Positions 5,631-37,473 are shown, counted from the first letter of the stretch. The stretch is 39,502 nucleotides of DNA from Chrysochromulina tobinii (GCA_001275005.1 JWZX01003165.1:1-39502), one strand, 5' to 3'. Numbers and translations are program-made. Notes: generated by a model not told the origin, from the sequence alone.

Positions 5631-7847
5631 ATGACGACTAGGCGCGGGCACGTTCCGCATGCGCAGCGCCGTCATCCGGCACCGCCTCTCGAGGCTTTTC
5701 GCCGGTCCGATGTCTTCGAGACTCTCGCATGCCATCCCGACACGCGCCCACACGTGGTCGATGCTGGGTTCCGCGAGGCGGTTTCGAAGCTGCGCACGAG
5801 TTCACACGAGGGCGGCATGCGCCTGATCCAGCACGACCCGCGGCTGGTACAGGCCATGGGCGTACTCAACGGCCATCGTGTCAGTGCGACCGAGGCGGAC
5901 GTGCGCGCCGCCGAGCGTGTCGGCGACATCAAGAAGCGCGATGCCATCCAAACGGCCGACGTCGAGGCTGCGCTGCAGTGTGCGACCGTCGCGGAGGCCA
6001 AGGCGGCCGGCAACGAGCACTTCAAGGCGGGGGCGCACAGCAAGGCGCTCGCCTGCTACGCGCGCGCGCGCGTACTCCTCGACAGCGAGGAGGCAGCCGC
6101 GCTCGCCGCTGGGGCTAGCGAGGACGACGAGGACGACAAGGTGGCGACGGGCGCCGCGCGTTCGGGCACGATGCGCGCCGTGCTTCTGAGCAACTCAGCG
6201 GCGGCGCTTCTGCGGCTTGAGCGGCCCGCGGAGGCGCTGCAGGCCGGGCTCGAGGCCCTCTCCGCCGCGCCGCCCCGCAGCAGTGAGCCCCTGAGTAAGA
6301 TCCACTACCGACTCGCACACGCGTACGAGCAGCTCCAGAGGTATGACGAGGCCATCGAGGCCATGCGTCGCTCTCTGGAGCACGCGCGTGGCGAGGCAGT
6401 CGAGGCGCCGTCTCGGGCAGTCGAGGCGCCGTCTGGGGCAGTCGAGGCGCCGTCTCGGGCTGGCGAGGCGCCGTCTCGGGCAGGCGAGGCGCCGTCTCGG
6501 GCAGTCGAGGCGCCGTCTCGGGCAGTCGAGGCGGCGCGTGGGGCTCTCCACCCATCGAGCCTCGAGTGCAGTGCAGCCTCCGACAGCGCCACCACCGCCA
6601 GCGCCACCACCGCCAGCGCCACCACCGCCAGCGCCACCACCGCCAGCGCCACCACCGCCAGCGCCACCACCACGAGCGCCTCCACCGCGACCAGTGCCAC
6701 CACCACCGCGAGCGCCACCAGTGCCCGCGCTAAGCTGCTGGCAGACGAGCTACGGCGGCTCGAGTGTGCACGCCGTGTCGCCACTGAGGCTCGGGAGGAC
6801 AAGGAGCGGCAGGCGAGGCGGGAAGCGGTGGCGCAGGCAAGGCGCGAGGCGGGCGTGCCTCTCGCGCCGTCCCGGGCGCCTGCCAACGGGGCGGAGGCGC
6901 CGTCCCGGGCGGCCGAGGGGGCGAAGGCAGCGGCCTTGGCTGAGCACGACTTCAGCCACTGGGCGCGCCGGGCGTTGGCGGCGCGACTGGGGGGCCTTCG
7001 ACACGCTCGCGCGGGCGCAACTGTCGTCGTGGATAGGATGGATGATGAGCGCTCCGAGGTGACTCTGATGACCCTTGATGACCCTTGATGACCCTTGATG
7101 ACCCTTGATGACCATTGATGACCATTGATGACCCTTGATGACCCTTGATTACGTCCGAGATGGACGATGAGCGCTCCGAGGTGACTTGCGTCTGCCCCGA
7201 CCATCGCCCCGGCCGCCAACCCCCCTTGCCTCAAGCTGGTGTGCATGGGGGGGTGCTGATTGTGGTGTGCAGGGGGGGTGGCTGATTGTGGTGTGCAGAT
7301 GGCTGACGGCTTGCTGATGATGATGGCAGGTGCATGCATCCATTCAAGAGCGTCGCGGCCGGCGCGCACTATATTACGATCTGGACCTGGTGCTGCACTG
7401 GACGGGTCACTGCGCGCTGGGGGAGCAGACGTTGGGCGAGGAGGCTGGGCACGCGCCCGAGACGACGGCACACACGATCCAGGGCGAGTTTCGGCACGCG
7501 CCCGAGACGACGGCACACACGATCCAGGGCGAGTTTCGGCTGTACAATGTCGGGCAGGACACCCAATTCAACCTTCAACCTCGCCCGCATCCAAGTGCTC
7601 ATCACGGCGCCGCCCTCCCTCCCCTTCCCCACAGGTGGGGCAGGACACCCAATTCAACCTCGGCGGCGACCCGCACACGTCCTACCTCTACACAGTGGGC
7701 GTTCCCGTACAGTTCCACAACGATGAGCGGTGCGAGCTCTGGGCGCGCCATCTCAAGTACGAGGCCAGCGAGCTCTTCGAGCTTGTGAGCGCGCTCGTCG
7801 GCCAAGTTGTAACCGATCTCGTGCGCAAGGCCGAAAGGGATTGTTGA
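5631..7847 (+). CDS. Putative Hsp90 co-chaperone with STI1-like, TPR and Aha1 N-terminal-like domains; exons 5631-7058, 7330-7548, 7635-7847 (~619 aa)
   Basis: TPR motifs AKAAGNEHFKAG..ALACY, LLSNSAAALL and KIHYRLAHAY; DPRLVQAMGVL (STI1-like); EHDFSHWARRAL..ASIQERRGRRALYYDLDLVLHW (Aha1_N-like). Both GT-AG introns restore the frame. Confidence 0.7.
7059..7329 (+). other. Spliceosomal intron (271 nt) carrying a (TTGATGACCC)n insert
   Basis: GAG|GTGACT ... GGCAG|GTG; joins ERSE to VHASIQ in phase 0. Confidence 0.75.
7549..7634 (+). other. Spliceosomal intron (86 nt)
   Basis: AAT|GTCGGG ... CCCACAG|GTGGGG; pyrimidine-rich 3' end; joins the 7330 and 7260 frames. Confidence 0.75.
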
Positions 7848-7974
7848 AAGGGCTCCAAAGGGTTTCTACGCTGTGCAGTGGTAGACGAATCGTATTGATC
7901 GGATAGGACGCAGCGCTTGCCGCGTAGAATGTACTGTTTAGAGAATAGGTTTCGTCATTAGGGCTACCGGTACG

Positions 7975-8377
7975 CCACTGAGTTCAAAATCAGGTGGTGG
8001 GGATAGTGTGTGAATCCAGAAAGAATACCCTCCCCTACCCCTTTGGATCAACCACTGAGTTCAAAATCAGGTGGTGGGCAGGTGGGGATAGTGTGTGAAT
8101 CCAGAAAGAATACCCTCCCCTACCCCTTTGGATCAACCACTGAGTTCAAAATCAGGTGGTGGGGATAGTGTGTGACTCCAGAAAGAATACCCTCCCCTAC
8201 CCCTTTGGATCAACCACTGAGTTCAAAATCAGGTGGTGGGGATAGTGTGTGAATCCAGAAAGAATACCTTAGAATACCCTCCCCTACCCCTTTGGATCAA
8301 CCACTGAGTTCAAAATCAGGTGGTGGGGATAGTGTGTGAATCCAGAAAGAATACCCTCCCCTACCCCTTTGGGTCAA
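7975..8377. repeat. Intergenic tandem repeat, 5 copies of a ~77-nt unit
   Basis: Unit CCACTGAGTTCAAAATCAGG...CCCCTTTGGATCAA starts at 7975, 8052, 8137, 8214 and 8301; copies 2 and 4 carry 8- and 10-nt internal micro-duplications. Confidence 0.95.
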
Positions 8378-9112
8378 GTCGCAATCTCCGTAAGGTATTA
8401 AATCTCCGTAAGATATAGTATAGAGGATATAGAGAATGATATAGAGTTGTCCTGTGCCCCCATATAGCCGAGCGGCCGAGAGCGATGCGACGAGACCAAG
8501 AGAGATGTGACCGTCCGGTCCGGAGTCAGATAACCGAACGTGTGAGTTCAGTGAGTTGTGAGCGTCTCGCCGCGCGTGACTCGCCGCGCCTCTTCGCTCT
8601 CGCGCGTCTATTAATAAAAGCGACCGGTGCCGCGGACTACGCACACTCTGCTGCACACGCAAAGCGATTCGTGCACATGCGACGTGCCCTGCACCGCTGG
8701 TTCTCGACCTTGTACGTATGGGATATGCCACGGTGCCCGTGCCGCCTGCGTGGGGGCGGAGGCCTCCTCTCCCAGCCGGCTCGAGATCCGGAGACGAGGC
8801 CGAGCGCCGTGGGTGGAATCGAGCTTCGCGTCCACCACATCAAGATGCTTCATTGGTGACTTAAAAGATGCCTCGAGGATCAACATGGCGGTCGGCATGA
8901 TCCCAGCCATTCACGCATGATCCCAGCCCGGACTGAGGAGACGCAAGTGTGAACACCCACCCTCCCAAATCTCTCCAAATCTCCCCGAGCCGCTCAAAGC
9001 AGCGCTGGCGCATCTTCGGCTGCAATCTCCTCCCAATCTCCCTGCCATTTGCAAGATTCCCACATGCCCTCACGCCCGCATGCCCGCTGTTCACAGGCCG
9101 CATGCCCGCTGT

Positions 9113-11144
9113 TCACAGGCCGTTCGGGTCGTAGCGCGACGGCGCGTACTCGGGTACCGTCTTGAGCGGTTTCGTCGACTCCTCGATGAGAGTGTAATCA
9201 TACCCGTGCTCGCGGCGCGATGCGTATGAGCGCTCAGTCCACTCGATGTCGAACCTGTGAACGAGCGATGGGGCGCTGTGGTGAGCACACGCATGCGAGG
9301 CAGCTCAGGGCCGGGCGAACGGTCCAACTCGATGCCGTACGAAGTGGCGATGACGTCCCCGAAGCGCGATTGGAGCGTCTCGTACGTCTCGTACGGGATG
9401 AAGTTGAAGCCGCACACCTCCGGGTCGTTGATGCCCACGCGCTTGATCTCCTCGTCAGTCGGACCGAAGATCATCGGAAGGTCATCAAAGGGCATCGGCG
9501 GGTAGCACTTTGAGGTGGCCTCCGTGCCCTGAACGCGCAGGAAGCATGCGACGTAGAGCCCGGCCGAGCCGAAGTCGGTGATGTTCTGGAAGTAGTAGCC
9601 CTCGCCAGGCTCACACGCGCCCGTCGGCAGGGAGGAGCCATCGTCGACACACTTGAGGTGGAAGACCTTGCGTGTGCTCTCGGCGCTCATGAGCGTCATT
9701 GGGGAGGTGCACTCGGCCACACTGCCACACGTCATCCAGGAGCGCGGCGAGTGCGGGTTTGGGCACACGTACGACTCATCGAGCTCGCCCACGTCTTGCA
9801 GGAAGTACGCTGCGGAGTGCGAGCCGCGAGCGCGCATGCCATGCGAGCGCCCCATGCCATCCTCCCAAGTGTTGCGCACGATCCAGCCTCCGTCAAAGCC
9901 CCGAACGGTGCGGAAGTGGTCATTGTAGCCGACGATGTTGATGGCGTGGCCGCCAATCTGCACTAGCGGCTCATTCGGCTGGTGAAACCACTCGCCTGCG
10001 ACACACACACACGCGCGCGCGAGCGCACGCCCGGTGGAGAGCTGTCAGAGGTCTGGAGACGGAGGGGCGGGCGGATGCCGAGAGGACGCGCCCAGTACGG
10101 CGCCTACGCCACGAGCAGCACGCTGAGTGTAGGCGCCGTACTGGGCACGCTGAGCAGCACTGCCGGGCGATGACGCTGACGAAGTTGGCGAGGCTGAGCA
10201 GCACTGCCGGGCGACGCACCCTTCATGCTCACCATCGGGCGCTCGATGGTGATGCAGCACGTGATGCCCTCGTAGACGCGCTCGTGCGGGCACGCCTCGC
10301 AAACCTCCTTCTCCTTGTCGCAGCCCCGACGGGCGTCGCAAGGCACGTGAAAGTGCGAGCTGACCTCGCCGAGACCCAGCGAGAGCGGGTAGCCGCGCTC
10401 GACGAGCGTCCGCTTGATGTCGTCACGCGCAAAGTGCGTCTTCCACGAATTCACTTTAAACTCGAGTGGATTCTTGCTACGCGCCTCGGCGAGGCCATCG
10501 CATTTCCAGTCATCGTCGAGGCCGGCGACCGGTGTGTAGGGGCACACCGTCACGGGCAGCGGGCCGATCTTGCCGAGGTCCGAGATCTGGCTCAGGGGGG
10601 CAAAGATCTTCTCATCGCCACCGTCGCGGCCTTCGGTCGTATTGCCCCACGAGATCATAGTGGCTCCGCCCTCCACCGTGACCTCCACGGCAGGGCAATA
10701 GCTCATCGGGTACTTCTTGCACGTCTCCATGTACGCGATGCCGAGCGCCTGGCGGCTCAGCCTCATGTACTTTGCGGGGTCAAACCAGCCGCGCTCGACT
10801 CCATAGCGACGGTAAGAGTCTTCGAGGATGCCCGAGCCCGAGAAGAGATAGCAGTCGCCACGAAGCAACTGATGGGACGACGGAGTCACGCCACTGACGA
10901 GGAATCGCGGCGGCGTCGAAGTGTGGACGCTCGGGCAAGACGGCGCGCTCGCCATCGACACCGCGCTGGGCTGCATGAAGTAGGCGAGCGTGCTCAGGAG
11001 CCCGCCGCCGATTACCATACCTCCGATGACCAAGGTGCCATTTCGTACCATACCTCCGAGTGGCGTGACCAGGTTGGTCGGCTTGGCGCGCTCATCGTCG
11101 CCGAGAAGAGATGTCTTTCCATTCTCCATAGATGCGTACTGCAT
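9113..11144 (-). CDS. Papain-family (C1) cysteine peptidase with an N-terminal TM anchor; exons 11144-10220, 9995-9341, 9254-9113 (~573 aa)
   Basis: Catalytic-type motifs HQLLRGDCYLFS (Gln/Cys), GGHAINIVGYND (His) and WIVRNTW (Asn). Two GT-AG introns give a continuous frame. Confidence 0.8.
9255..9340 (-). other. Spliceosomal intron (86 nt)
   Basis: TC|GTACGG ... TTCACAG|GTTCGAC; gives ATSFDIEWTERSY...PNGL-stop. Confidence 0.7.
9996..10219 (-). other. Spliceosomal intron (224 nt) with internal direct and inverted repeats
   Basis: AAGG|GTGCGT ... GTCGCAG|GCGAG; gives MKGEWFHQP. Confidence 0.8.
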
Positions 11145-11687
11145 CGTGTCGGCGCAGGCGCTTGGAAGGAAGGTGACGTCGGGGGTCTCGCCGTCCGCGC
11201 CGATTCCGCTCGGGGGTCTCGTTACCGGTACGTACCGGTATCGGCAAATTCCGCACCAAAGCAATGACGACGCGTCGACCACCCTGTGACTGACCGACCA
11301 CCTTTCGCTGCCTCACTCACCGCGGAGCGCATGGCGCAAACGCAAATACGAGTAATGTCCTACAGTATCAGGCTACAGACTGCATCGGCGCCAGGCGCCG
11401 CGGTCTAAACTTAGTTCATGTCAGCCAGAGGACAACAACGCCGTGAATAAAGGAAGCCTTACTGAATGTGCTCCGGAAGCCAGCTGTGGTGGAAGGGAGT
11501 CGATGGAGACCATGGAGGGGGGTCCAAATTTTTGATGGACTTGATTGTTATTGATGTTATTGATCACGTTATCTTCGCGGAATTTTCTAGTGAACATATC
11601 CTGCGACGTCCACATTGCATCACCACGGGACCGAGTCTTGCCGTTCACAACCCCTACTCTAGGTCCTTCACACCTCATGTTCTAGAA

Positions 11688-13591
11688 ATGGAGACCTTCC
11701 TGCCTTCACCCATTGACGACGACGGCGACGCTACAGGTGACCGAGAGTGGGACAGCAGTTACCTCCTGCTTGCAGCTCTTGTCAATGAGGATGCGTGTGC
11801 ACGCCTCCTGCCTCCCGGCGTCTCGCTTCCTCCTGAGGAGGTGCTAGAGCTGGGCGCCGGAACCGGCGCCATGGCCTGCTCACTTCTTGCGTCACGCTGG
11901 TCTGGAGTACGGTACGTGGCCACGGACATGGCTTGCCGTATCGCCAACATAGAAGCCAACGCGGCCAAGAGCAAGTGCACCAGCTTGTACGCACAGCCAC
12001 TCATCTGGGGCAGCACGCCACCAGCACCAATGAGTGCGGGCGATGCCACCTACCTTGTTTTGATGTCCGACTTGATCTACTTTCACGGCAAGCACCTGCT
12101 CGAGCCCGACACACTCGAGCCGCTCGCGCAGACGCTCTGCATGGCGCTCTCACAGCGCAGGCGCTCCTGTGCCCTCTTCACGTTCAGGGAGCGCGACCCC
12201 GAGCGTGAGGCTCATTTTCGAGCCTTGTGCGTCGCACGTGGCTTGGCGGTCACAGAGCCGCTCGACGCTGACTATCTGGCGGGGCTCGTACCCGCCGCGA
12301 CGCACTCGGATGTTGAATCATCTGGGCCATTGAGGCTATGGCGCCTGACGCCTCCACAAGACAGCACTACACACGTGATTTCAGGCGAGGCGCCCACTCC
12401 CCCGGCGCCCGCAGCCACAGTGCCGCAGCATGCACTCTCTTCTGCGCAGCCGTCTGTACTCATACCGCAGCTCTCGATTACAGCACTCTCGGCCGGCTCT
12501 GTTCGCGCGCATCTCCGGATCAAGATCGGCCCAGATCTGCCGAGATTGGAGCCAGATCTGCCCAGATCGGAGCCAGATCTGCCGAAATCGGAGCCAGATC
12601 TACCCAGATCGGAGCCAGATCTGCCCAGATGGCGCCAGGGTGCCCTCGTAGCGAGCGAGCGAGAGCCTCGGCTGGTGCTCTACCCCAATTTCCTCTCTGC
12701 GTCGGAGACAGCGCACCTGCTCGACTTAAGTCGCTGGGGCGCGCTCGAGGCAGAGGCCGCTGCGATCTTCACGCCCGCGGCGACGCCTGCTGTCTCTTGG
12801 GACAGCGGTCGCGCCATTAACGCCGCGAGCAGCGGGCGCACGATCACCATCCATTTGCCCTCGCCCAGTGACGATCCTATCATCCAGGCCATCGAGGAGC
12901 GCTGTGCGGCAGCGACAGGCATCCCAATACACGCCGATGAGGAGCCTATAGGGGTGCGCCTAACGAGCCCCTCAACGGCCACCACTGATATATACATGAT
13001 TGCCCCTAATCATGGATGCCCCCTGATTGCCTCGCTCATCAGGTGCGCCATACGAGTCCCTCAACGGCCGACGAGTGCGGCGAGCGCTACTGCACCGCGC
13101 TTCACATCGACACGAACCAAGGCGGCCACTTCCGCGCCGCGACGGTGCTGCTGTACCTGCATGACATCGAGCACGGCGGCGAGACCCGTTTCCCGCTCGT
13201 CGGCGCGGCGGAGGGCTCGGAGATTCGACTTGCGGCCGAGCGCCTTGCGGATCTCGGCATCACGGCGTTCAGCCCGAGTGAAGACATCGAGTGGCCACCC
13301 CTCCACTTGCGAAAGCCGTTACTGGATGCCGCGGAGGCGGAGGGCGTCGGGCTGTGCATCCAGCCCAAGGCGGGGCTCGCCGCCGTCTTCTGGACGCATA
13401 CGCCCGATGGCCTGGACAAGTACAGCTGGCACGCGGGCGCGCGCGTGCCGCCTGAGGCCACCGATGGCAAGCTCATCGCCCAAAAGTTCAAGTCGCTTCC
13501 AGTCCAGTGGCGGCCAACACGGAAAGCAGATGCCGTCAGGCTGCCCGTTGAGTTGAGCCCGCCGTTAGGGTTAGGGTTAGGCGTAGCGTGA
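11688..13591 (+). CDS. Fusion of a METTL21-like (Methyltransf_16) protein methyltransferase and a prolyl-4-hydroxylase-like 2OG-Fe(II) oxygenase; exons 11688-12953, 13043-13591
   Basis: WDSSYLL, VLELGAGTG, ATD, LIWG and SDLIY motifs; then LYPNFLS..E, HID, ATVLLYLHD..GGETRFP and WHAG..K. A further in-frame intron may lie near 12450-12638. Confidence 0.75.
12954..13042 (+). other. Spliceosomal intron (89 nt)
   Basis: GGG|GTGCGC ... CTCATCAG|GTGCGC; joins the 11466 and 13016 frames in phase 0. Confidence 0.8.
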
Positions 13592-13790: not shown

Positions 13791-16700
13791 TTAGTCGTTG
13801 GTCATCGAGATCAGCGCGGTGCCGCGGCGCGTCCACAGGAGTGGGTCTTCCTTGCTCTTGAGCCAGAAGTTGCACACGTGGTTCGTCGAGTGGCCCGCGG
13901 TCGAGAGCGTGCCCGCGCGCACGTTCGTCTTGTAGAAGGGGCACTCGTAGTTGCCCTTGGCCCGATCGGGCCCGATTTTGTCGGGCATCAAGTGGAGGAC
14001 GTTCATCGGCGCGAAGAGCTCGCCCTGGTGCGACTCGGCCATGCACCCCTCCTTCGGGTCGAAGCGTGCGCCCTCCATGAACATGCCGTGGATGAAGACG
14101 CCGTCCGGAGGGGCCGCGGGCACGTCCTCGAGCCCCGCGTACGGCTTGACAAACGCGACGAACTCGAGTAGGTCGATGGCCTCCTTGTACTTGCGCGCGT
14201 AGGCCTGGAGCGCGGACGTGAAGAAGCCCTGTGGGAAGAAGACGGCGGAGATCCAGAACGACTTGGGCGGTCCGCCCGTGAGCCAGCCGCGCATGAACTC
14301 GACGCGCCCGACAAAGTCCTTGTACCAGGAGGCGAGGGGCTTGAGCGACGGGTAGCCCTTGCCGCCCTCGCCCCAGGGCCCCGGCACCTGCTGGAAGAGG
14401 AGGTTGGCGTATGCGGCGTCGAGTTGGGCGGACATGACGACGAGCCCCTTGAGGCCGCGCTGGAGCTCGTTGAGCATCGTCTTGATGGCACCGATCATTC
14501 GGTTGAACTTGTCAATCTCCTGCGAGAGGAAGATGCCGAGAGGATTCATCGAACCGTCCTCGAGCTTCGCAAAGGTCGACGCGCCCGCCTCCTTGAGGTT
14601 GAGATTCTTGGGCATGCGCGCCACGAGGTCGTCGCACACCTCGCCGACGACCTCATCGGACGACTTGCCGCCGCCGCCGCCGCCCGTGCGCGGCTGCAGC
14701 GAGATGATGGTCTCGAGCATGCCTGCGGACTCCTTTGTTTGGAAAGTGATGTCCGCGTTCAGGTGGAGTCCGAAGATCTCGGGACGGTCCACGAGCGGGA
14801 ACGTCGAGATGAACTGGCGGTACGTGTCGATCGGCCCCTCGGGCGGCGCGCAGTACCGGAACTTGGCATCCAGCTGCGGGCAGTACGAGAAGGTCGTCGG
14901 CTGCGCGATGGTCTGCGGGTCGAGGTACGACGAGAGGATGGCGCGCGTGAGGCGCACGTCCTGCTTGTCCGTCACGCGCCCGCCGTAGATGACGTCCGAG
15001 ATGATGATGTTGAGCGCCTCCCACGGCACCGACGGGTTCTGGTCGAGGAAGAGCTTGAGGTTCGCCTGCGCAAAGTTGAGGTCGGAGGTCATCCACTGGT
15101 ACGCGATGTTCCAGCCGATCGCGCCGTACTTGCGCCGCTCCTGAATGACCGCGTTGAAGAAGCACAGGCCGAAGAGCAGGTTCTTGAACTCGGTCGGCTG
15201 CGCGCATCCTTCGAGCGTGCTCACATCCATGTCGATGTACGAGCGGCCGATGTTGGCCTTGAGGCCCTTTGGAGGCTCCTGCGTGAGCTTGAGCGAGTTC
15301 TGCAGGATGGTCGAGGGGAACTCGGGCGTGGGCATCGTGGTGAGCCACATCCTAAAGTCCTCGGCGATGCCCGACGCGTCGCGAAGCTGCTCGAGCAGCC
15401 GATCGAGCGTGGGCAGCCACGAGACGGCCAGGTGGCAGTTCTGCAGGCACACCCAGTATCCCTTGCCCTGCCCCTCGGCCATCAGCCGCTCGGCGATCGG
15501 ACCCTGGCCCTGGCCGAGCGAGACCATCTTGAGATTGTCTCCGACCGAGTAGTCGTACTTGCGCCCGAGCGCGAGAAGGTACTGCGTCGGGTCGGCGCCC
15601 GAGGTGAGGACGAAAACGATCGGCACCTTGGACGACGAGTCATTGTACGTGGACTGCAGATCAAAGGGAGGCGGCTCCTTGAACGACTTGCCGATCGAGT
15701 TGCCCACGAACTCTGACGAGCCGAACGCGACCTTCTCTGGCCGGAAGGCCTTGACGAGCAGCAGCCGATGGAAGGCGGTCGCCTTCTTCTCCCAGGCGGC
15801 GGGCAGTGGCGCCGTCTCTGGCGTCTCGGACGTGAAGAAGGTCTCCCACGCGGCCGAGTCGGCCATGACCGACTTGCGCAGCCCCTTGAGCTCGTCGATC
15901 TCGGCGTCGGCCGCGAGCACCATCGCCCAGGCGCGCGGCTCGATCCACGAGGACGCGGCGCCCGCGTCGGGCAGCCCGTCGACCCCGATGCCGGCCTTGA
16001 GGAAGTAGGCCCACTCGGCGGGGGTGATGTCGCCGCGCTGGCGCAGCACGCCGACGGCGATCAGGAAGGCAAAGAGCGTCTTGTGCTTCTCGAAGAGGGC
16101 GCGGCAGATGTTGACGAAGATCGACTTTAGGATTTCGTCGAGGAGAGTCTGCAGGCGCACCGCGAGGTCGTCGCTGGGCGGCGCGTCGGTGACCGTCTTG
16201 CAGAAGACCTGCTTAAAGTACTGGAGCGAGAACTGGTACATCGGGTCGATGACGCGGAAGTCGGCGACCACGAAATACAGGATCGAGCCGCGCGTGGCCA
16301 CCGGCCGATATGCCTCGCACGTCTGCACGATCTCCTTGGTCGTCACCTCGGCGCCCTTGACCGACTCTTCGGTCTTCTTGGAGATCTTCTTGGACGAGTC
16401 GAGCGTGTTGATCAGCGCCTCGTCGTCGAGGATGTTGCCGCTCGACTCGGCAAGCAGCCGGAGGATTGTATCCTCGAGCTCCTGGATGGTCTTACGGCCG
16501 GCCGCGATCGAGATCACGAGCTCCTCCTTCTTCTGCTGCAGGTCGGGCCGCTCGAGCGACGCGACGTCGGCGAGCAGCTGGTCCTCGAGCCCCTCGATGG
16601 TGACGGTGAAGTTGACGATGGTCACCTTGATGCACACCTCGGGCGCGTAGTGCGGGTTGGCGAGCGGCGAGGTGATGTAGAACTTGAAGTTCTCCGAGTA

Positions 16701-22700: not shown

Positions 22701-25700
22701 GCTTGTTCGCGTCGAGGAAGGTGTCAAGGAGCCCTGGCACGGTCACCTGCGCGATCACGTTTGGATTGTCGTGGCACTTGCGCATGCGGTCGATGAAGAA
22801 CTTGTTGATCTTCGTAAACTTTTGCGACTCGGCGGGCAGCTGCTTCTGGATGTCCTCGGCGCCAAAGATGTTCTCGAGGTACATCCACGAGCGCTGGCAC
22901 GTGAGCCACTCGTCGAGCACCTCGGAGAGCGTCGAGAGCTTCTTCTCCCACTCCTCCACCTCCGTCCGGATGCCTCCGACGAAGCGCGAGGCGAGGATCG
23001 TCTGCAGGCCCACCTGCGAGTCCTCGAGCTGAACCACGACCTCATCGATACCGCCCACGATGAAGATGTCCGCCTGGTCACGGTGGTTGAGCGTGACGAA
23101 GCCAATGTCGGCCCAGCCTTTGCGGATCTTCTCGAGCAGCTGCTCGAGGCCGAACTCGCCACTTGCGTTGTTCGAGGTCTCGTTGATGAACTCGGCCTGC
23201 TTCGTGGCGCCGTACGAGAGGAGCTGCTCGAGGGTGAAGGGCGCGCCCGGGTAGTACGACTGGCCGAGCTTGTCGTACAGCTTGGCCCAGTGCCGGTCCT
23301 TGCCCACGACCGCGAGGTTGGCGAGGTCCTGGATGCACGGCATCTGCTCCTTGAAGTCCTCGACGCTCTCCTTGAACATGGTCACCACCGGGTCAGGCAG
23401 CCCATTCGGACCTGGCCGCTTCGAGAGCTTGTGCGCGTCCTTGTAGTTCTGCGCGACCTCCTTGATCAGTTCCTCGACGTTGAGCGCCTTGAAGTCGACT
23501 GCCTTCCAGGCGTACAGCATCTCGTTCCACGTGTCCAGCTTGGACCACAGCTCCATGCGCAGCTCGTACTGCCCCATCGTGTCGTTGAGCTGCTTGAACT
23601 CCTGCGGAGGCTGCTTGAAGGTCTCTTGCATCGCCTTGTAGCCCTCGGCCTTCTCCGCGATGGCGGCCATCTGCTCTTTGGTCGCATGCAGACGCTCAAG
23701 CACCACCTTCGGGTCGACGGTCGGGTCGACGTAGTCGCCGGTCGAGAGGCTCGCCATGATCGACACGAGGTCCTCGTTGAGGTTGGCAATCGACTTGTTG
23801 AGTGTCGCGACCATCTGTTCCATCTTCTCACCCACCGCGCCGTCGGCGGAGCCCGTCTGCTCGGTGAGTTTGTCTCGTGCCTCCTTGAGATCATCCTTCT
23901 TGACGGCATCCGCCGCGGGCACCTTGACCTCGTACATCTCGAGCAGGTCGTACATCTCGTTCACCTGCATCGCGCGGTCCTCCATGTCGTTGCGCTCGAT
24001 GCGGATGCGGTTGAGGTTGTCGCAGTAGTCCGCAAAATCGCGCAGTGAGCGCGGCTGCTCGGACAGGTCGCGAATCCGCATCTGGTACGACGCGAGTGCC
24101 TCGGCGCAGAACTCGCGCGCCACCGACAGCAGCAGCGTACGGCACTTGTTGAGCGTCTCTTGGCAAATGGGCATCAGACCGTTCTTGAGCGTCTTCGTGT
24201 CGACGTGCAGGTTGCGCTCGGTGCCCGAGGTTTTCATCTTTTCGAGATCAATGACCCATTTCTTGATCTGGCCCATGTCCTGTCTTGAACGCCTGCACGG
24301 TCTCCTTGAACGACGTGCCCTCCTGCTGGCGCTCCGCGTACGCGTCAAAGTTGAAGTGCTGGCCGAAAAAGTGGATGACGCGGTACATCTCAAACTCCTG
24401 CGCGTACGCGTACGCGCGCACGAAGTCGGTGGCGACGGCCTCCTGCAGCAGCTTCTGCACCTCGATGAAGCGAGTGTCGTGCCGCACCACCTTCGACACG
24501 TCCGGCCCCTCGATGCGTCCTGAGTGGAAGTACCTGCCAAATTAGGGAGGTCATTAGGGGATCTCATTCAGGGAGGTCATTAGCATCAGGGGAGGCTCTT
24601 AGGGGAGGGCATTAGAAGAGGTACTCACGGCTTGAACGGGCGCATGTAGAGGAGCCGCGGCACCGTCTGCACGTTCGTGATCATCGCCTCGATCATGGTG
24701 ACGAGCGAGGCCGAGAAGGTCTTGAGCGGCGGCGAGAAGAGCGTGTCGTCCTCGCCGTACTCGACCGATGTGATCCAGAGCCCGTTCTTGCGCGGCGTCG
24801 TCATCGTGTTCAGCAGGTTCTCATTCGAGGCGACCGTGAGAAGGTAGCAGGACGAAACGGACATGTAATCCGCGAGCCGGATGAAGTCGCCGAGCATGAG
24901 CGACTCCCCCTGCGCCTGCTTGACCGCGCGCAGCTTCTCCTGCTTCTCCTCGCGCTCCGCCGCCATCGACTTCGAATGCGTCTTCATAGGGAGGGCACGC
25001 TTGCCATCCTCGCCTTCGCCGCCCGTGACCGAGGCGGAGAGCGGGTTATCGTCCGAGAGGCGCGAACGCGAGGTGACGTCCTTGCACACCTTCTCGACGA
25101 GCGCCTGCAGCTTGTCGATGATCTGCTCAAAGGCCTTCGCGGCCTGCAGCTGCTGCTGCTGCTGCTCCTCGAGGAACGCGTCGATCGTCAGGTAATTGGG
25201 TGACGCGGGCGCGAGCAGGCGCGTCTTATCTCCCGAGCGGAGCTCGTAGCACAGCGCGTTGATCTCGAGCAGCGTGCCGCAGAAGGCGACCTTTGACAAG
25301 AAGAGGCGCTTGCACAGCTGGCGCCGGCACGCGTCGAAGAGCTTGTACCGCACGTTCGCGCGCCACAGCCGGAAGATCTTCGCCGCAAGGAAGCTCTTGA
25401 AGAACCGGATCGATGTGAGCACGTTGAAAAAGGTCGACTGCTGCATCCACGACGAGAGTTGCGTGAACTCGGAGGGCGGGACCTCCTTGCTTCCGTTAGA
25501 GGCCCAGCTTCCGCCGAACACGTGCACCACGCCGCACGCGGACATGGTGAAGTACTCGGGATCCGTCTGATCGCGCGACACGACCGTCAGGTCGTACGGC
25601 CGGAACTCGTCGCCCGTCCGAGCGCGGTTGAGGTAGACAAACTTGACGGGGGTGTGGCTGCTATTGCGTGCGAAGAAGTTGGCGGCCTGGTCGCCCGTCT

Positions 25701-25914
25701 TCAGCCGCGCCTCGCCCGTCGCGTCCTCCTCCTCCGCCGATGCGCCCGCACCGGCGGAGCTCTTCGCGAGCTTCGCCTTTTTGAAGGAAGCTTGCATTGG
25801 CTGCTGAGCCATCGCCGTCAGCGACTCCGACGGGCGACGGATGTTGGGCAGGTCATAGTCGTACAGCTCCTCGATGTTGAAAGCGTACAGCGGCGCCGAC
25901 CCCTCCTGCGCCAT
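13791..25914 (-). CDS. Axonemal inner-arm dynein heavy chain (DNAH6-like, ~4008 aa); one intron and two apparent +1 frameshifts (~24284, ~20336)
   Basis: P-loops GPAGTGKTET, GLTLTGKT, GETGTGKS and GVGGSGRSSL; CFDEFNRI; FPRFYFLSNDELLEILS; stalk coiled coil; C-terminal YECPFYKT..HSTN. The subfamily call is from recall of the sequence, not from an alignment. Confidence 0.93.
24534..24628 (-). other. Spliceosomal intron (95 nt) with CT(A/G)ATG-type internal repeats
   Basis: AAGCC|GTGAGT ... TTGGCAG|GTACTTC; gives RPFKPYFHSG. Confidence 0.85.
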
Positions 25915-26304: not shown

Positions 26305-27872
26305 TCAGTCGCAGCAGCACGAGGCAATCGGTTCGCAGTCGCTCGTCCGCACAGGGCACTTGTGCACGTCGCCCCCGGGCGCCGCGCAGCATTCGCCTCC
26401 CATTTGGATACAGTTGGCCTGCGCGAGGGCACGGATGCCCGGCAGCGACTTCGGGATGTCGCACACGCCGTTTTCCCACACGCAGCCGTGCACTGCGCCG
26501 TACTGTTTGCAGCTGCCCTCGCTCGTGTACGACTCGCCCGAGCCGGAGCAGCACGTCTGTCCCGGGCTGCACGTCGCGTCCGCATGGTAGCAGCAGTTGC
26601 CGGGCGTCGGGCCGGGCTTGGGGGGGGCGGGGGGGCCCGGGGCAGCGACTTCGGGATGTCGCACACGCCGTTTTCCCACACGCAGCCGTGCACTGCGCCA
26701 TACTGTTTGCAGCTGCCCTCGCTCGTGTACGACTCGCCCGAGCCGGAGCAGCACGTCTGTCCCGGGCTGCACGTCGCGTCCGCATGGTAGCAGCAGTTGC
26801 CGGGCGTCGGGCCGGGCTTGGGGGGGGGCGGCGCGGGCGCCCCGCACGGCCCCACCGCCATTGCTGCCGCGTGCATGAGGCCGACAAGGCCCGGCTGCTG
26901 CATGCAAATCGCGAGCCCCGCGCGGCCGAACTGCGACTCGACGTGGTTGTTGTCGAGCGCGCAGAACCAGTCGTCGCTCTCCGTTTTCGCGACCGCCCAC
27001 TTCGAGTGGTCCACCTGGGTGGCATGCACGTCAGGCGGTTCTTCGCCTGGAAGCTGAATGGTCAAGATGTCCGTCACGTTGTAGCCCTCACCAGGCGGTA
27101 CGCAGTAGCCGCCAATGACGCCGCCAGTATTGAGCCACGACTGCGACCACAGGTCCGTCTTGAGCGCGGGCGCGGTGATCAAGTCGAGCATGTCGATCTC
27201 CGCCGCGCTCGCCTTCCCCTGCAGGTGAAGCGTCGCCCACCCGACGTCGATCGTCGTGACTGTCGTGCCCGGTAGTTTCTGCTCCGCGGCGACGGCGTTA
27301 ATGTTGGGCCAGCTCGTGATGTCCAGGCGCTTGTCGTACACCTGCGGGTACGCGTACTGCATCACCAGGGCGATCTCGTTGAGCATCTTGGGCGTGAGCG
27401 ACATGCAGAACGCGTGCTGCCCGTAATACGTCTGGCCGTCGCCGTACTGGTAGCCTGCCTTGACGTACTCGGGGAAGTCGGGGACGCTGTGCTGGACGAA
27501 GAAGGCCGAGGTCTCGTCGAAGGCGAAGAAGCCCTTGGAGTGCCCGTGGGATGAGCTCGATCCCCCGCCGTCGGGCAACTGGTCGTTGTAGAAGACGTAG
27601 TTGGTGACCGAGCCATCGTAGACGCCGGCGAGCTGCAGCCCAAACAGCGACGACGTCTGGAAGACGGTGTGCGCGCCGACGGTCCATGAAGTGGGCGAGG
27701 CAGAGGTGCTGTACACGTACGTGGAGCCGGTGCAGTCGCCGATGCATGTTTTATGGCTCGCGTCCGTCCAGCGCGGATGCTTGTAGAGAAACCACCAGTC
27801 GACGGCTTCGCCGGCTTCGTTGACGCAGCCGAGCTTGGCGGAAATGGCGAGGACGGGCAGAAGCAGTGCCAT
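26305..27872 (-). CDS. Secreted deoxyribonuclease II with a duplicated Cys-rich C-terminal module; apparent frameshift in a G-run at ~26620-26640
   Basis: Signal peptide; GCVNEAGEAVDWWFLYKHP; two HxK motifs (GHSKG and DHSKWAV); QHSVPDFP; YGQHAFC. Confidence 0.85.
26441..26828. repeat. Near-identical tandem duplication (200-nt period) encoding the Cys-rich module
   Basis: GGCAGCGACTTCGGG begins at both 26441 and 26641; the copies are almost identical. Confidence 0.95.
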
Positions 27873-30150: not shown

Positions 30151-30352
30151 AAGTTCGCGGGCTCTGGGGTGTTAACAGCCGAGCGAGCGAGTACCTTAGT
30201 TCTTGTTTGCTATTGACTGTTAACAGCCTTCTTTCACACCGCGTTCTCTTGCTTCTGTGAACACGCACGACCACGCGCTTCAGCTCCACGCGCTGGAGAC
30301 TCACCTTGACTTCACGCGCAAGCGGTACTCACCTTGACTTCACCGCAAACGA

Positions 30353-33300
30353 ATGGCGGACAAGGTGCAGCGCCTCCGCCAGTATGAGTACCGCGCCAAC
30401 TCCAACCTCGTGCTCACCTCGGAGACGGCGCGGGTGCGCAACGACGAGCCGTCGGGCGAGCCCACGTCGCTCAAGGAGCACCTCGAGGGCACGCGCTTCG
30501 GCGACCGCGTGTACCACTCGAAGCCGGACCTCGAGGGTGCGGGCAAGAAGCGACGCTCAGAGAAGGGCGTGATCGAAGTCAAGCGCTCAAAAAAGGACAC
30601 GGAGACGGTGCTTGGCCTCACCGATGACATCGACTCCTACCGGCCGCGCTCAAAGGAGACGCGCAGCGCGTACGAGGACCTGCTCTCGACGATCTCGCAG
30701 CAGCTGGGCGACCAGCCGCACGACATCCTGCGCGGCGCGGCCGACGAGGTGCTCGCGTGCCTCAAGAACGACTCGCTCACCGACCCAGAGCGCAAGGTCG
30801 AGGTGGAGAAGCTGATCAACCACCTGGGCTCCGAAGCCTTCGCATCACTCGTGCAGGTGGGCAAGCGCATCACCGACTACATGCAGTACGAGGGCATGGC
30901 GGGGAACGAGAAGCTCGACGACGAGCTCGGCGTTGCCGTCGTCTTCGACGGCGGCGATGACGACGACGACCCGTCGGCGAGGCGCGACGATGCCGACGAT
31001 CTGGTCGACGTTGATGTCTCCGATGACGATGCGGATGACGTGGGCGTCGATGCGGCGGCGCCTCGGCAGCTGGCGCGCGGCGACGAGGTGGCGGGCGCCG
31101 ACGGCGACGGCGACGAGCTGCCCATCGGCTCCATCGACGCCTACTGGCTGCAGCGTGAGTGCGGCAAGTACTTTGGCGATCCGTTGGTGGCGCAGCGCAC
31201 AGCCGTGGACGTTCTGACGACGTTGATGCTTCCGGACGAGCGTGAGTGTGAGAACCGGCTGGTACGTGGCTGGTGGTGGATGGCCTTGATGATGATGATG
31301 GCCTCGGAGTGCCTCTGACGGCCTCGTCGATGGCCTCGTTGATGGCCTCGTTGATGGCCTCGCTGATGGCTTCGTTGATGGCGTGCCTCCTCAGGTGGTG
31401 CTGCTCGACTACGACAAGTTCGAGTTCATCCGGCTGCTGCTCAAGCACCGCTGGAAGATTGGGTGCTGCACACGCCTCGCGCAAGCGCAGTCGGAGGCCG
31501 AGCGCGCGCGCCTGCTCGCCGAGTTCGACACACACGAGGCGACAGCCGCGGTCGTCCACGAGCTTGCGAGCGCGCGCACGCAGACCGAGGAGATATTCAC
31601 CCAGACGAAGCAGCTCGAGGCGCGTGTGCGCAAGGAGACCGCCGAGCTGTCGCGGATGCGCGCCCAGGCCGAGGGTGCCGGCGCCGCCGCCGCAGATCTC
31701 CTCGCAGCGATGCCCGAGCCCACCAAGGCGCGCGTCGGCACGACGGTGCTCGACCTGGACGCGCTCGCCTTCGAACAGGGAGGCCACCTGATGGCGAATA
31801 AAAAGTGCGCGCTGCCGGCGGGCTCGGTGCGCACCCAGCGCAAGGGGTACGAGGAGGTTCACATCCCCGCGCTCAAGCCGAAACCGTTCTTGGAGGGGGA
31901 GGCACTCGTGCCGATCGATTCGCTTCCCGAGTGGGCGCAGCCCGCGTTCGCGGGCATGCGCACGCTCAACCGGGTGCAGTCGCGCGTGTGCAAGTGCGCG
32001 CTGTACTCGGCCGAGAACATGCTCATCTGCGCGCCCACCGGCGCGGGCAAGACGAACGTCGCGATGCTCACCATGCTCCATGAGATTGGCATGCATCGCT
32101 CGCCGACGACGGGCGCCGTGCTGCTCGACGCGTTCAAGATCGTGTACGTGGCGCCCATGAAGGCCCTCGTGCAGGAGATGGTGACCAATTTTGGCAAGCG
32201 GCTCGAGGCGTTCGGGATCACGGTGCGCGAGCTCACCGGAGATCAGCAGCTGACGAAGCAGCAGATCGCCGAGACGCAGCTGATCATCACGACGCCCGAG
32301 AAGTGGGACATCATCACACGAAAGAGCGGCGACCGTACATACACGCAGCTGGTGCGCCTGATCATCATCGACGAAATCCACCTGCTCCACGACCACCGCG
32401 GGCCGGTGCTCGAGTCGATCGTCGCGCGCACGATCCGGCAGGTGGAGACGACGCAGGAGATGACGCGCGTCATCGGCCTCTCCGCCACCCTCCCAAATTA
32501 CGAGGATGTCGCGGCTTTCCTGCGCGTCGAGCCGAGCAAAGGGCTCTTCCACTTCGACAACTCGTACCGCCCCGTGCCGCTTCAGCAGCAGTATATTGGG
32601 ATCACCGAGAAGAAGGCCATCCGCCGATTCCAGCTCATGAACGAGATTGTGTACGTTGAGTGCCTCTGATGACCGCTGAGTGTGCCACTGATGACCGCTG
32701 AGTGTGCCACTCATGACCGCTGAGGAGCTCTGATTGCGCCCATCATCATGTTCAGGTACGAAAAGTGCCACGCCCAGGCCGGCAAGAACCAGGTGCTCGT
32801 CTTCGTGCACTCACGCAAGGAGTGCGCCAAGACAGCGAAGGCCATCCGCGATACCGCGCTGCAGCACGACACGCTCGTCGACTTTCTGCGCGAAGACTCC
32901 GCCTCGCGCGAGATCTTGCAGACCGAAGCCGAAGCGACCAAGAATCGCGAGCTGGCCGACCTGCTGCCGTATGGCTTCGCGATCCACCACGCGGGCATGA
33001 CGCGCGTCGATCGGACGTTGGTCGAAGACCTCTTTGCCGATGGGCACATCCAGGTGCTCGTCTCGGCGCCCTGAGTGCTCGTCTCGGCGCCCTGAGTGCT
33101 CGTCTCGGCGCCTTGAGTGCTCGTCTCGGCGCCCTGAGTGCTCGTCTCGGCGCCCTGAGTGCCCTCCCTCATCTGAAGGCCGAAACCGATGGCCTCCCTC
33201 ATCAGGTGCTCGTCTCGACGGCCACGCTCGCATGGGGAGTCAACCTGCCCGCGCACACGGTGATCATCAAGGGGACTCAGGTGTACGATCCCGAAAAAGG

Positions 33301-36300
33301 CAAGTGGACGGAGCTCTCGATGATGGACGTGATGCAGATGCTCGGGCGGGCGGGCCGGCCCGGCTTCATGGGACGTGCCGACGAGCACGGCGAGGGGATC
33401 ATCCTGACGCAGCACTCGGAGCTCCAGTACTACCTGTCGCTCCTCAATCAGCAGCTGCCCATCGAGTCGCAGTACGTGACGAAACTTGCCGACAATCTCA
33501 ACGCCGAGGTGGTGCTCGGCACGGTGCAGACGGCCGCCGAGGGCGTCGCGTGGCTTGGGTATACGTACCTCTTCGTGCGCATGCTGCGCAACCCTTCGCT
33601 CTACGGCGCGTCCGAAGCGGAGCGGGAGAGCGATCCGTTACTCGAGCAGCGGCGCATCGACCTCATCCACTCGGCCGCGACGCTGCTCGACAAGTGCGGG
33701 CTGCTGCGCTCTGATGGCCCTTGATGACCCTTGATGACCCTTGATGACCCTTGATGACCCTTGATGACCCTTGATGACCCTTGATGACCCTTGATGACCC
33801 TTGATTACGTCCGAGTGCCCCTCTCATCAGGTGCGGGCTGCTGCGCTACGAGCGCAAGAGCGGCCAGCTGCAGCCAACGGACCTGGGGCGCGTGGCGGCG
33901 TACTACTACGTGCCCCACAAGACGATCTCGGTGTACAATGAGTATCTCAAGCCGACACTGAGCGACATTGAGCTGCTCCGCCTCTTCGCGCTCTCGACCG
34001 ACTTTGCGAACATCACCGTGCGCGAGGAGGAGAAGCAGGAGCTTGCGCGCCTGATCGAGCGCGTGCCTGTACCGGTCAAAGAGCACGTGGACGAGCCCAC
34101 TGCGAAGACGAACATCCTTCTGCAGGCGTACATCTCGCAGCTCAAGCTCGAGGGCTTCTCCCTCCTCTCCGACATGGTGTACGTGACGCAGTCGGCTGCG
34201 CGCCTGATGCGCTGCCTGCACGAGATAGTGCTCAAGCGCGGATGGGCCTCCCTTGCGGATCGCGTGCTCAGCTTCTGCAAGATGATCGATCGGCGCATGT
34301 GGCTCGCGCAGACGCCGCTTCGCCAATTCAAGGGCATCCCGGAGGACATCATCAGGAAGATTGAGAAGAAAGACTTTCCGTGGGAGCGATTCTATGATCT
34401 CCAGCCGCAGGAGATCGGCGAGCTCGTGCGCTTTCCTAAAATGGGCAAGATGATCCACCGGTTCGTCCATCAGTTCCCGCGCCTCGAGCTGCAGGCGCAC
34501 GTGCAGCCCATCACGCGCACCGTGCTCCGTGTCGAGCTCACCCTCACCCCCGACTTCCAATTCGATCCCAAGGTCCACGGCCATGCAGAGGCCTTCCACG
34601 TGCTCGTGGAGGACGTCGATCAAGAGCACATCCTGCACACGGAGACCTTTTTATTAAAGGCCAAGTTTGCTGAGGACGATCACACTCTCTCGTTCACAGT
34701 TCCGATTGCCGACCCGCTGCCGCCTCAGTACTACATTCGGGTCGTCTCCGATAGGTGGCTTGGGTCCGAGACCACCTTGCCGGTCTCCTTCCGCCAGCTC
34801 ATCCTACCCGATAAGTTCCCGCCACACACGGAGCTGCTCGACCTGCAGCCGCTGCCCGTCTCGGCGCTCGAGAAGCAGTCGAGATTGTACGCCAACGCCT
34901 TCACGCACTTCAACCCGATCCAGACGCAGACCTTCTCAACGCTCTTCCACACCGACGAGAATTGCCTCGTCGGCGCACCGAGCGGCTCGGGCAAGACCGT
35001 GTGCGCCGAGTTCGCCATCCTGCACATGCTCATGACGAAACCCGATGGACGGTGCGTCTACCTCGCCCCCCTCGCCGCCATCGCGGAGGAGAGGCATGCG
35101 GACTGGACGAAGCGCTTCGGGGCGCTCGGCTGCACAGTCGAGATGCTCACGGGCGAGACGGCGATGGACCTCAAGCTGCTCGAGAAGGCCACGATCCTGA
35201 TCGCGACCCCGCAGCAATGGGACCATCTCTCGCGCCGCTGGAAGCAGCGCAAGAACGTGCAGACGGTCGCGCTGCTGCTGTGCGACGAGCTCCACCTCAT
35301 CGGGGGCGAGCCCGGGCCCGTGCTCGAGATTGTGATCTCGCGCATGCGCTACGTTTCGTCACAGACCGAGTCGGGGCTGCGCATCGTGGCGCTCGCGAGC
35401 TCCCTCGCGAGCGCCAAGGACCTCGGAGAGTGGCTCGGCTGCCCTTCAGCGGCGATCTTCAACTTCCATTCGAATGTGCGCCCAGTGCCCCTAGAGCTCC
35501 ACATCCACGGCCTCGACATCGCCCACGTGCCCTCGCGCCTGCTGGCCATGGGCAAGCCCGCGTACTATGCGATCGTCAACCACGCCCAGGAGCGCCCCGT
35601 GCTGCTCTTTGTACCCACCGCCAAGCAGACGCAGCTCACCGCCATCGACCTGCTCACCTACGCAACGGCCGAGGGCAAGCCGCGACGCTTCCTGCATGCC
35701 GAGCCGCAAGACATGGCGCCCTTCGTGGCCAAGATCAAGGACGCGGCGCTCTCTCACACGCTCGGGTACGGCCTTGGCTTCTTACACGAGGGTCTCTCTC
35801 ACGACGAGATCGCGGCTGTGAAAGCACTCTACGCTACCGGGGCGGTCCAGGTGCTCGTGGTCGTCTACACCCTTTGCTGGTCGCTCTCGCTGCCGGCGCA
35901 CCTCACGATCATCATGGACACTCAGCACTTCGACGGCGCAGAGCACCGGTACGTGGACTACCCCATCACCTCCATTCTGCAGATGATGGGGCGCGCGTGC
36001 CGGCCGTTAGTGGACGACGTGGGCCGCTGCGTGCTGCTCTGCCACGCGTCCAAGAAAGCGTTCTATCGCAAGTTCTTGTACGAGCCTCTGCCGGTCGAGT
36101 CGCACCTCGATCACTACCTCGCGAACCACTTGTGCGCCGAGACGGTCACCAAGACGATCGAGTCGAAGCAGGACGCGGTCGATTACCTCACGTGGACTTT
36201 CATGTACCGACGACTCACGCAGAATCCCAATTACTACAATCTTCAAGGGACGAGTCACCGCCACCTGTCCGACCACCTGTCCGAGCTCGTCGAGACGACG

Positions 36301-37473
36301 CTGAGCGATCTCGAGCAAGCTCGCTGCATCTCGATCGAGGAGGGCATGGAGGTGACGCCGCTCAACCTGGGCATGATCGCGAGCTACTATTACATCAACT
36401 ACACGACTGTCGAGCTCTTCGCTTCGTCGCTGACGGCGACCACCAAGCTGCGAGGTCTGCTCGAGATTGTGGCAAGCGCCTCCGAGTTTGAGCTGCTGCC
36501 TGTCCGATTGCGCGAGGACGACACGCTCGCGGCCCTCGCCGCGCACTGCCCGCACAAGCTCGAGAGCCCGCGCTTCTCGGACCCACACACCAAGGTGAAC
36601 GTGCTGCTCCAGTGCCATTTTGGGCGTCGCGATCTGCCGCCGGAGCTCACGGCTGACCTGCACGGCACGCTCGAGAAGGTGACGAAACTGCTCCAGGCGA
36701 TCGTGGACGTGCTTTCGTCCTCGGGGTGGCTCGCGCCCGCCCTTGCCGCCATGGAGCTCTGCCAGATGTGCGTCCAAGCGCTCTGGGATCGCGACCCCGT
36801 CCTCTTGCAGCTGCCGCACGTGACGCGCGAGATCGCGATGCGGGCCAAGGCGGCGGGCATCGAGACGGTCTTCGACCTGATGGAGATGGACGATGATGAG
36901 CGCGTCGAGCTGCTGGCCATGCCGCCCGCGCACCTCGCCGACGTGGCGCGCGTGTGCAACCGGTACCCGTCTGTCGAGCTCGCCTTCGAGGTCGAGGACA
37001 CTGAGGACGTCTCCGCAGGCGACACAGTCACCGTGCTCATCTCTCTCGAGCGCGAGGCTGAGGAGCAGCAGGGCGTGCCTGCAGTGCATGCGCCGCACTA
37101 CCCTAAGGCGCGCTGATTGCCTGTGATTGCACTGGGTTTGCCTGTGATTGCCTGTGATCACCTGTGATTGCCTGTGATTGCACACGTGATGACCTCTGAT
37201 GGCCTCCATCATCAGGTCAAGGAGGAGGGCTGGTGGCTCGTCGTGGGCAACACAAAGGCCAACACGCTGCTGTGCATCAAGCGGATCTCGCTGCAGCTCA
37301 AGGCCAAGGTGAAGCTCGAGTTCGTGGCGCCCGAGGCGGGCGAGTATGTGTATACGCTCTACCTGATGAGCGACTCATACCTGGGCTGCGACCAGGAGTA
37401 CGAGCTGCCTCTCCAGGTGGCCGAGGCCAAGGATGCGGACGACGACGAGGACGAGGATGACGAGGACGCCTGA
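30353..37473 (+). CDS. BRR2: U5 snRNP 200-kDa helicase Brr2; exons 30353-31261, 31395-32650, 32756-33053, 33206-33693, 33831-37107, 37216-37473 (~2161 aa)
   Basis: [13 protein letters not shown]-terminus; [23 protein letters not shown] cassette; [16 protein letters not shown]; second [12 protein letters not shown] cassette; Sec63 domains; [16 protein letters not shown]. The exon lengths sum to 6486 nt, in frame. Confidence 0.97.
31262..31394 (+). other. Brr2 intron 1 (133 nt) with (GATGGCCTCGTT)n repeats
   Basis: CTG|GTACGT ... CCTCAG|GTGGTG; gives ENRLVVLLDY. Confidence 0.9.
32651..32755 (+). other. Brr2 intron 2 (105 nt)
   Basis: ATTGT|GTACGT ... TTCAG|GTACGAA; gives MNEIVYEK. Confidence 0.9.
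33054..33205 (+). other. Brr2 intron 3 (152 nt) with five 21-nt repeats
   Basis: CAG|GTGCTC ... CTCATCAG|GTGCTC; gives [13 protein letters not shown]. Confidence 0.9.
33694..33830 (+). other. Brr2 intron 4 (137 nt) with (TTGATGACCC)n repeats
   Basis: GACAA|GTGCGG ... CTCATCAG|GTGCGG; gives [11 protein letters not shown]. Confidence 0.88.
37108..37215 (+). other. Brr2 intron 5 (108 nt), GC-AG type, with (CTGTGATTGC)n repeats
   Basis: AAG|GCGCGC ... ATCATCAG|GTCAAG; gives YPKVKEEGWW. Confidence 0.8.

Follow-up and report, generated by a model that had tools for sequence, protein, structure and literature searches.

Several routes to new introns have been described. In Daphnia pulex, neointrons were attributed to the repair of staggered double-strand breaks: repeats of 4-12 bp were reported in 33 cases, 43 of 90 gains were parallel, and several different introns were found at one site (PMC4202315). 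Introners have fixed duplications of 3-8 nt and near-identical full-length copies (10.1101/2020.10.14.339549; 10.1101/2022.06.06.494994). Our comparison set of introners comprised those of Symbiodinium, Polarella (classes 4, 5, 6, 8, and 10), and a Chrysochromulina sp. TARA metagenome-assembled genome (MAG), the last of which has a 4 bp duplication and a polarity opposite to what we report here (same references). A five-copy family in Emiliania co-opts the 5' splice site and was noted with 10-bp terminal direct repeats (PMC12130899). In the tandem genomic duplication model, a duplicated AGGT provides both splice sites, and the intron consists entirely of copied exon (PMC3443670). Here we describe introns of the freshwater haptophyte Chrysochromulina tobinii that open with a copy, or "echo," of the exon that follows them. 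They lie on a 39,502-nt stretch of DNA (JWZX01003165.1:1-39502, from GCA_001275005.1; "the window"), in the gene for the splicing helicase Brr2 and in its neighbors. A literature search, which most subscription papers lay outside the reach of, returned no report of long echoes of variable length in haptophytes. In the accessible supplementary rows of PMC9860276 (the journal version of 10.1101/2022.06.06.494994), C. tobinii appears only in an input table, and the accessible text of its genome paper has one mention of introns (PMC4580454).

We modeled 11 introns in the window. Five are in Brr2 (the U5 200 kDa helicase; 30353..37473, plus strand, 6 exons), which becomes a single 2161-aa frame once they are taken out, and the six others were placed by reading frame. 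Five of the 11 open with a 12-27 nt copy of the following exon. The match to the start of the next exon is 25 of 26 nt for the intron at 7549..7634 (plus strand), 24 of 27 nt for 12954..13042 (plus strand), and 17 of 17 nt for Brr2 intron 4 (33694..33830), where the echo is followed by an array of TGATGACCCT and a CATCAG end. In Brr2 intron 3 (33054..33205), the echo is 12 of 12 nt, or 15 nt counting the shared CAG in front, and it is present five times, within a 21-nt array. The intron at 9255..9340 on the minus strand has a decayed 19-nt echo (16 of 19 columns match); a gene model from C. parva (P0492) has the same junction, whose donor lies 12 nt before the one chosen in the public model KOO23700.1. 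The exact cut within a duplication is ambiguous, and our GT-AG placement is the canonical choice.

To score the echoes, each intron start was compared with each next exon by an anchored score, and the pairs were re-drawn 200,000 times. The summed score was 93 for the introns and their own exons versus a mean of 34 for the re-pairings (P=1e-5), and the best of the 110 wrong pairs scored 5. Among about 400 random GT sites in the window, none reached the scores of 7549, 12954, 33694, or 9340, and 1 of 399 reached the score of 33054. The first-pass annotation had listed a sixth echo, in Brr2 intron 2 (32651..32755). We rejected it: the match is just 5 of 5 nt, 20 of 400 random GT sites score as high, and its GTACG is also the donor of Brr2 intron 1 (31262..31394), so five echoes stand. 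Intron 1 has no anchored echo, although a copy of its spliced junction (GCTGGTGGTG) can be read from the sequence 7 nt inside the intron. Echoes are also missing from Brr2 intron 5 (37108..37215, GC-AG) and from the introns at 7059..7329 (plus strand; the next exon is not echoed), 9996..10219 (minus strand), and 24534..24628 (minus strand; no anchored echo). The polarity is one-sided: none of the 11 introns has a copy of the upstream exon at its 3' end, where the longest match is 3 nt. On these independent intron models, we reproduced the earlier count of CAG|G acceptors in 11 of 11 introns and of GT at the start of the next exon in 10 of 11.

RNA contigs of three runs (X13, X14, and X15) support all five Brr2 junctions. 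Junction 31262-31394 is joined in RNA contigs of X14 and X15; 32651-32755 and 37108-37215 (with its GC donor) are joined in those of X13, X14, and X15; and 33694-33830 is joined in those of X13 and X15, with a loose end in X14. Junction 33054-33205 is backed by a loose end only, an X14 contig that carries the next exon. Two of the five echo introns (33054 and 33694) thus have RNA support. The DNA run X9 retains the Brr2 introns, and runs X19-X21 contain next to none of the sampled words. Two further assemblies, L001 (99.1% identical) and L005, have identical echoes in introns 3 and 4, and the length of the intron 4 array is their only difference from the window in these introns.

After the echo, the introns show one of two 3' types. 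Family A has TGATGACC-like units and mostly a CATCAG end, and it is found in 31262, 32651, 33054, 33694, 37108, and 12954. Family B has GTGCTCAYCAC inside and a CACAG end, and it is found in 7549 and 9340. These families are a description and not a test, as the pairwise filler scores came from 300 rough shuffles of repetitive DNA. In X9, the summed depth is 2076 in the bin of intron 4 and 4163 in the bin of intron 5, versus about 45-55 on exons, so family A words are high-copy. In intron 4, the CTGATG after the echo, which is also the unit of the array, is complementary to the terminal CATCAG. The fillers are ~25 to 140 nt long overall and 60-140 nt in the five echo introns; this spread, along with 3' ends that do not fold better than shuffles (z of -1.5 to 1.3), is unlike a fixed element, and we rejected a 3' hairpin as a signal. 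Three filler motifs had 0 matches in viral contigs. A scan of prokaryote genomes gave two loci, one chance match and one contig (L008, 1-1440) that is filed under a Gemmatimonas MAG. L008 bears a haptophyte-type intron of family A and is probably algal contamination; its flanks resemble two different genes, and it was set aside for echo length.

These introns resemble introners in that the donor comes from the duplication and the acceptor from the insert, the mRNA is unchanged, and repeated intron sequence occurs at unrelated loci (10.1101/2020.10.14.339549; 10.1101/2022.06.06.494994). However, duplication length is not fixed within a filler family: it is 12, 17, or 27 nt in family A and 19 or 26 nt in family B. 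Neither is there full-length identity among the 11 window introns and L008, a small sample: they share motifs and the two 3' types, and the closest pair shares just a 94-nt internal piece. As in tandem genomic duplication, the 5' end of the intron copies exon sequence (PMC3443670), but a foreign filler provides the acceptor, and CAG|GT lies within the duplication only at 33054. All five echo introns have 60-140 nt of filler, and in four of the five the match to the upstream side is 0-1 nt.

One event shows duplication and filler without a GT start or a CAG end. At 7037..7186 (plus strand), across an exon end and the donor of the intron at 7059..7329, a 28-nt duplication (7037-7064 and 7159-7186, 27 of 28 nt identical) encloses a filler that is identical at 92 of 94 nt to 33722-33815 in Brr2 intron 4, which is 26 kb away. 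The filler includes a 13-nt non-repeat tail that occurs in the window only here and in intron 4. This duplication opens at GATGG, lacks a CAG end, and sits in an already existing intron. Because GT and CAG are both missing from its ends, the underlying event would seem to extend beyond the making of introns, and it is probably splicing that imposes the GT/CAG rule. The earlier proposal of insertion at an exonic GT therefore stands in one part, as a variable duplication gives the donor and the insert gives the acceptor, but it does not extend to the event at GATGG.

Gene sets from relatives show where introns vary. Prokaryotic gene callers run into introns, so that their proteins reveal intron starts, and we back-translated the alleles; the calls also read into neighboring introns, so they do not come from spliced cDNA. 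At 33559..33578 in Brr2 exon 4 (LG|YT), the window has an empty site. Of the 17 members of one cluster, the 15 that are listed all agree with the window and are empty. In a second cluster, by contrast, each of the 7 members departs from the exon at this point, as do P0160, P0162, and P0163. P0160 (8 contigs) and P0416 show both sides of the site: YTYL, a family B peptide, and YTYL again. The insert is 72 nt if it is GT..AG; it is in frame and stop-free and could also be retained. In other calls, the 5' side alone is seen, with an echo of ~20 nt in P0413 (23 contigs), 13-15 nt in P0414, P0415, and P0417, and 7-8 nt in P0418. P0406 reads through introns 3 and 4 as P0160 does, but without the insert at 33559. 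At a second empty site (9162..9203, minus strand, HG|YDY), 5 of 15 listed members (of 45) have a 67-nt, GT..AG-compatible insert, with ~42 nt of echo and ~25 nt of filler. Read in this way, the relatives' echoes would be ~7-42 nt long. At known introns, read-throughs of intron 4 imply an echo of 17 or 19 nt, and in P0450 and P0462 the unit at 12954 is doubled (echo-filler-echo-filler). No extra intron is seen among the matches listed for Brr2 exon 2 (15) or among the 13 aligned to exon 1 of the minus-strand gene. We also rejected P0427 and P0433 as intron-less alleles, as they come from a 6,907-base contig that is likely partly spliced RNA. A 14-base pattern of the 33559 site had 104 matches, none in Brr2, and a metagenome scan gave seven loci (two from this organism, one genomic haptophyte, three probably haptophyte cDNA, and one bacterial), none of them a variant allele. 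Overall, two sites that are empty here, 33559 and 9203, appear to be filled in near-identical relatives, and protein read-through indicates that intron gain is likely ongoing. The first-pass annotation pointed to Brr2 in relatives as the place to look for presence and absence: the echo intron at 33559 does appear to vary, as does that at 9203 in another gene. Its claim that echoes decay is borne out by the alleles VLISAP and CGLLH.

We also considered whether the echoes or the variant alleles might be assembly artifacts around repeats. The window's dynein gene does carry frameshifts, one of which is not in L005, and chimeric gene calls do occur in the relatives' collections. However, L001 and L005 have the same echoes in introns 3 and 4, the introns are skipped by RNA contigs yet kept by a DNA run, variant calls recur (in up to 23 contigs, for P0413), and the collapse of reads cannot yield mismatched echoes. 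We consider such artifacts highly improbable.

How old are the intron positions? Proteins P0001 and P0002 (from 236- and 202-kb contigs), P0124, and the genomic contig L003 are unbroken across introns 1-4 and 33559, and the last three are unbroken across intron 5 as well. The outgroups for 33559 are genomic haptophyte sequences, and there are none for 9203; P0024, L004, L006, and L007 were rejected as genomic outgroups. In a wider census of positions, which counts C-terminal breaks only, there was no shared intron at 31262, 32651, 33694, or 37108 in 103, 128, 161, and 47 informative rows, respectively. The rows that were scored as breaks at these introns (1, 1, 13, and 1) are explained by divergence, by short ends, or by their coming from this organism.

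Intron 3 is different: 53 of 281 rows, from many eukaryotes, break or end at 33054. After dropping 10 rows (this organism's own, 3 continuing, 3 one-residue ends, and 3 unclear), the position is an intron site in ~43 of 281 fragments, although the query length favors fragments that end there. These rows group with animals, green algae, Phaeocystis cordata, and one closer haptophyte, and none of the introns at this position in other eukaryotes starts with an echo. The intron is absent from the closest haptophyte rows (P0002, P0280, P0001, and P0339). A tree of 181 columns, with 7 of 28 inner branches well supported, does not separate loss from regain. Either an old intron later gained an echo or the CAG|GT site was hit again. 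Because the position is common to distant eukaryotes, an echo is not always the mark of a new position. The first-pass annotation took ancient positions, conserved in distant eukaryotes, as evidence against its proposal, and that objection applies in part: it holds for 33054, while the introns at 31262, 32651, 33694, and 37108 are absent from related haptophytes.

The age of 33054 raises the question of whether echoes mostly arise by the later rewriting of older introns, with local duplication of the exon start, slippage between repeats, and conversion between repeat-rich introns replacing the 5' part and no new position being made. The unechoed introns of other eukaryotes at 33054 would fit, and local re-duplication is seen, both in the five echo copies of 33054 and in the doubled unit of P0450 and P0462. 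The junction copy inside 31262 and the event at 7037-7186, in an existing intron, are of the same kind, and one gain followed by rewriting is a more economical account of the different versions at 33559 than repeated gain. However, rewriting gives no account of 33559 itself, which is empty here and in the outgroups and filled in near-identical relatives, nor of the four Brr2 positions without a shared intron. Also, the four closest haptophyte rows lack the 33054 intron, so its regain at CAG|GT is possible. We think that rewriting is unlikely to explain most of the echoes, but it probably has a part too, at 33054 and possibly in the different versions of 33559.

Alternatively, an enzyme-driven element might insert the introns, either by target-primed reverse transcription of an intron-bearing RNA, as in non-LTR (long terminal repeat) retrotransposition, or by an HUH transposase like that of Replitron-1. 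Non-LTR insertions typically have variable duplications and 5' truncation, but ~42 nt is long for a non-LTR duplication. Viewed antisense, the introns have a fixed CTG end directly after a dinucleotide, a variable duplication, and a ragged far end, and their fillers are high-copy. Replitron-1 of Chlamydomonas reinhardtii (Replitron-1/N1: 3.6 kb and ~910 bp, TAAAGG direct repeats, Rep transposase) likewise inserts in one orientation at a dinucleotide, with variable-length duplications, one fixed and one ragged end, and carry-over of the parent's flank; one Replitron-like locus has been reported in C. tobinii, and the accessible text reports no intron formation by Replitron-1/N1 (PMC10288648). 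The P0160 insert starts with YL-SRR, and P0163 exits the same insert into a gene starting with YEIYLSRR, an overlap that could be a piece of parent flank carried along. However, SRR could also match because it is a word of family B or because of a chimera. The two filler families are unrelated, with no fixed length, no short direct terminal repeats or common termini, and no poly(A) or simple-repeat tail by the duplication: on the gene strand, the inserts end in CAG. The insert at 7037-7186 stops inside its template, and a published screen lists 0 introner families for C. tobinii (PMC12130899, supplement file 7). Selection by splicing would give the same pattern as a Replitron-like variable duplication at a dinucleotide. 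On balance, an enzyme-driven element seems unlikely, although it is the leading alternative and the signature of Replitron-1 fits well on the antisense strand.

The explanation we favor, at about an even chance, is that these introns, which are likely young, are variable-length exon duplications around a filler, for which the 3' portion of an intron already present probably served as the template during repair. A staggered break or a stalled 3' end would switch template at a few matching bases, copy intron DNA, and then return upstream of its departure point. The duplicate would start with the donor GT, and the filler would supply the acceptor CAG at its end. Splicing would keep those events that begin at GT, bring a copied acceptor, and reach ~65 nt or more; we infer both this selection and the enzymology. 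The flanking repeats would then invite slips by which the intron is doubled, trimmed, or rewritten. The gains in Daphnia are similar in having a direct repeat of the adjacent exon at the intron's far end and in differing in presence between close relatives (PMC4202315); here, such variation is judged from proteins, as is the absence of the 33559 insert from outgroups. The several versions at 33559 would reflect either parallel gains, as in Daphnia, or one gain with later rewriting. Unlike in Daphnia, with its repeats of 4-12 bp, the duplications are 12-27 nt in the window and ~42 nt in relatives, the echo is always on the donor side, and filler families are common to several loci.

Several observations weigh against gain by copying during repair. 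The sample is 11 introns, three of the five echoes were placed without RNA, and 6 of the 11 introns have no significant echo, with several of these carrying the same filler family. Microhomology at the junctions is only 1 nt at 7159 and is suggestive at 33559. The variant alleles are known from proteins alone: P0162, P0163, and P0412 are chimeric calls, and calls that end in YTYL or CGLLRY may be contig ends, as may P0414 and P0415. The several fillers and echo lengths at 33559, and the echoes of 17 versus 19 nt at 33694, would need a hot spot or later rewriting; Brr2 has 280 exonic GTs. Finally, the position of 33054 is an intron site in many other eukaryotes.

A broader, tentative possibility is a cycle in which introns beget introns: without any fixed element, the 3' parts of introns would be copied into exonic GT sites. 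The agent of copying in this cycle might be an enzyme, Replitron-like or of retro type, or it might be repair, and the duplications would reach ~40 nt.

Other features of the window and its surroundings were noted in passing. Within Brr2, residues ~870-880 include a four-residue insertion (GRP[GQ]FMGRAD) in haptophyte-like sequences that is not in other aligned eukaryotes. The public model KOO23708.1 covers just Brr2 residues 723-2078; it begins within intron 2 and stops within intron 5, the GC-AG one. Beyond window position 37688, 3' of Brr2, L001 has 3.7 kb of unrelated DNA, facing which the window has an open reading frame without a Pfam match; in L005, beyond the window, a short frame (HSLRIGGAT) resembles a remnant of a tyrosine recombinase, judging by eye. 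The minus-strand gene at 13791-25914, which contains the intron at 24534..24628, we take from its translation to encode a dynein heavy chain. Its two frameshifts are at 24280 and near 20350, and the former is not in L005, so it is probably an assembly error. The other genes include one with TPR and weak Aha1_N matches, to which the intron at 7059..7329 belongs, and a methyltransferase/2OG-oxygenase gene (11688-13591, plus strand), which seems to join Methyltransf_16 to a weak 2OG-Fe(II) oxygenase match across the intron at 12954. There is also a long low-complexity protein with two ShK-like domains (496-3999, minus strand). Repeats include a 45-nt tandem duplication in the Aha1_N-like exon (7448-7540) that is exact, in frame, and free of filler; a 77-nt unit that occurs five times in the space between two converging genes (7975-8377); a 21-nt array whose length varies between relatives (12523-12638); and, where a DNase II gene ends, a 200-nt duplication (26441-26827), with a 12-nt gap at the joint in L005.

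The origin of new spliceosomal introns is a long-standing question, and few organisms are known in which gains have yet to finish segregating. On this 39-kb contig, each of two genes seems to carry, in some near-identical relatives, an intron that is absent from the cultured strain. The target, the duplication, and the probable template are still readable, so that repair, retro-type, and Replitron-type routes can be distinguished. Our results suggest that screens that require full-length similarity miss a common route of intron gain and that gene callers can be led astray by a long echo of an exon. If introns do beget introns, then occupied sites, even ancient ones, would keep being hit and rewritten; introner screens would fail to pick up such introns, and their turnover would be masked where positions are shared.

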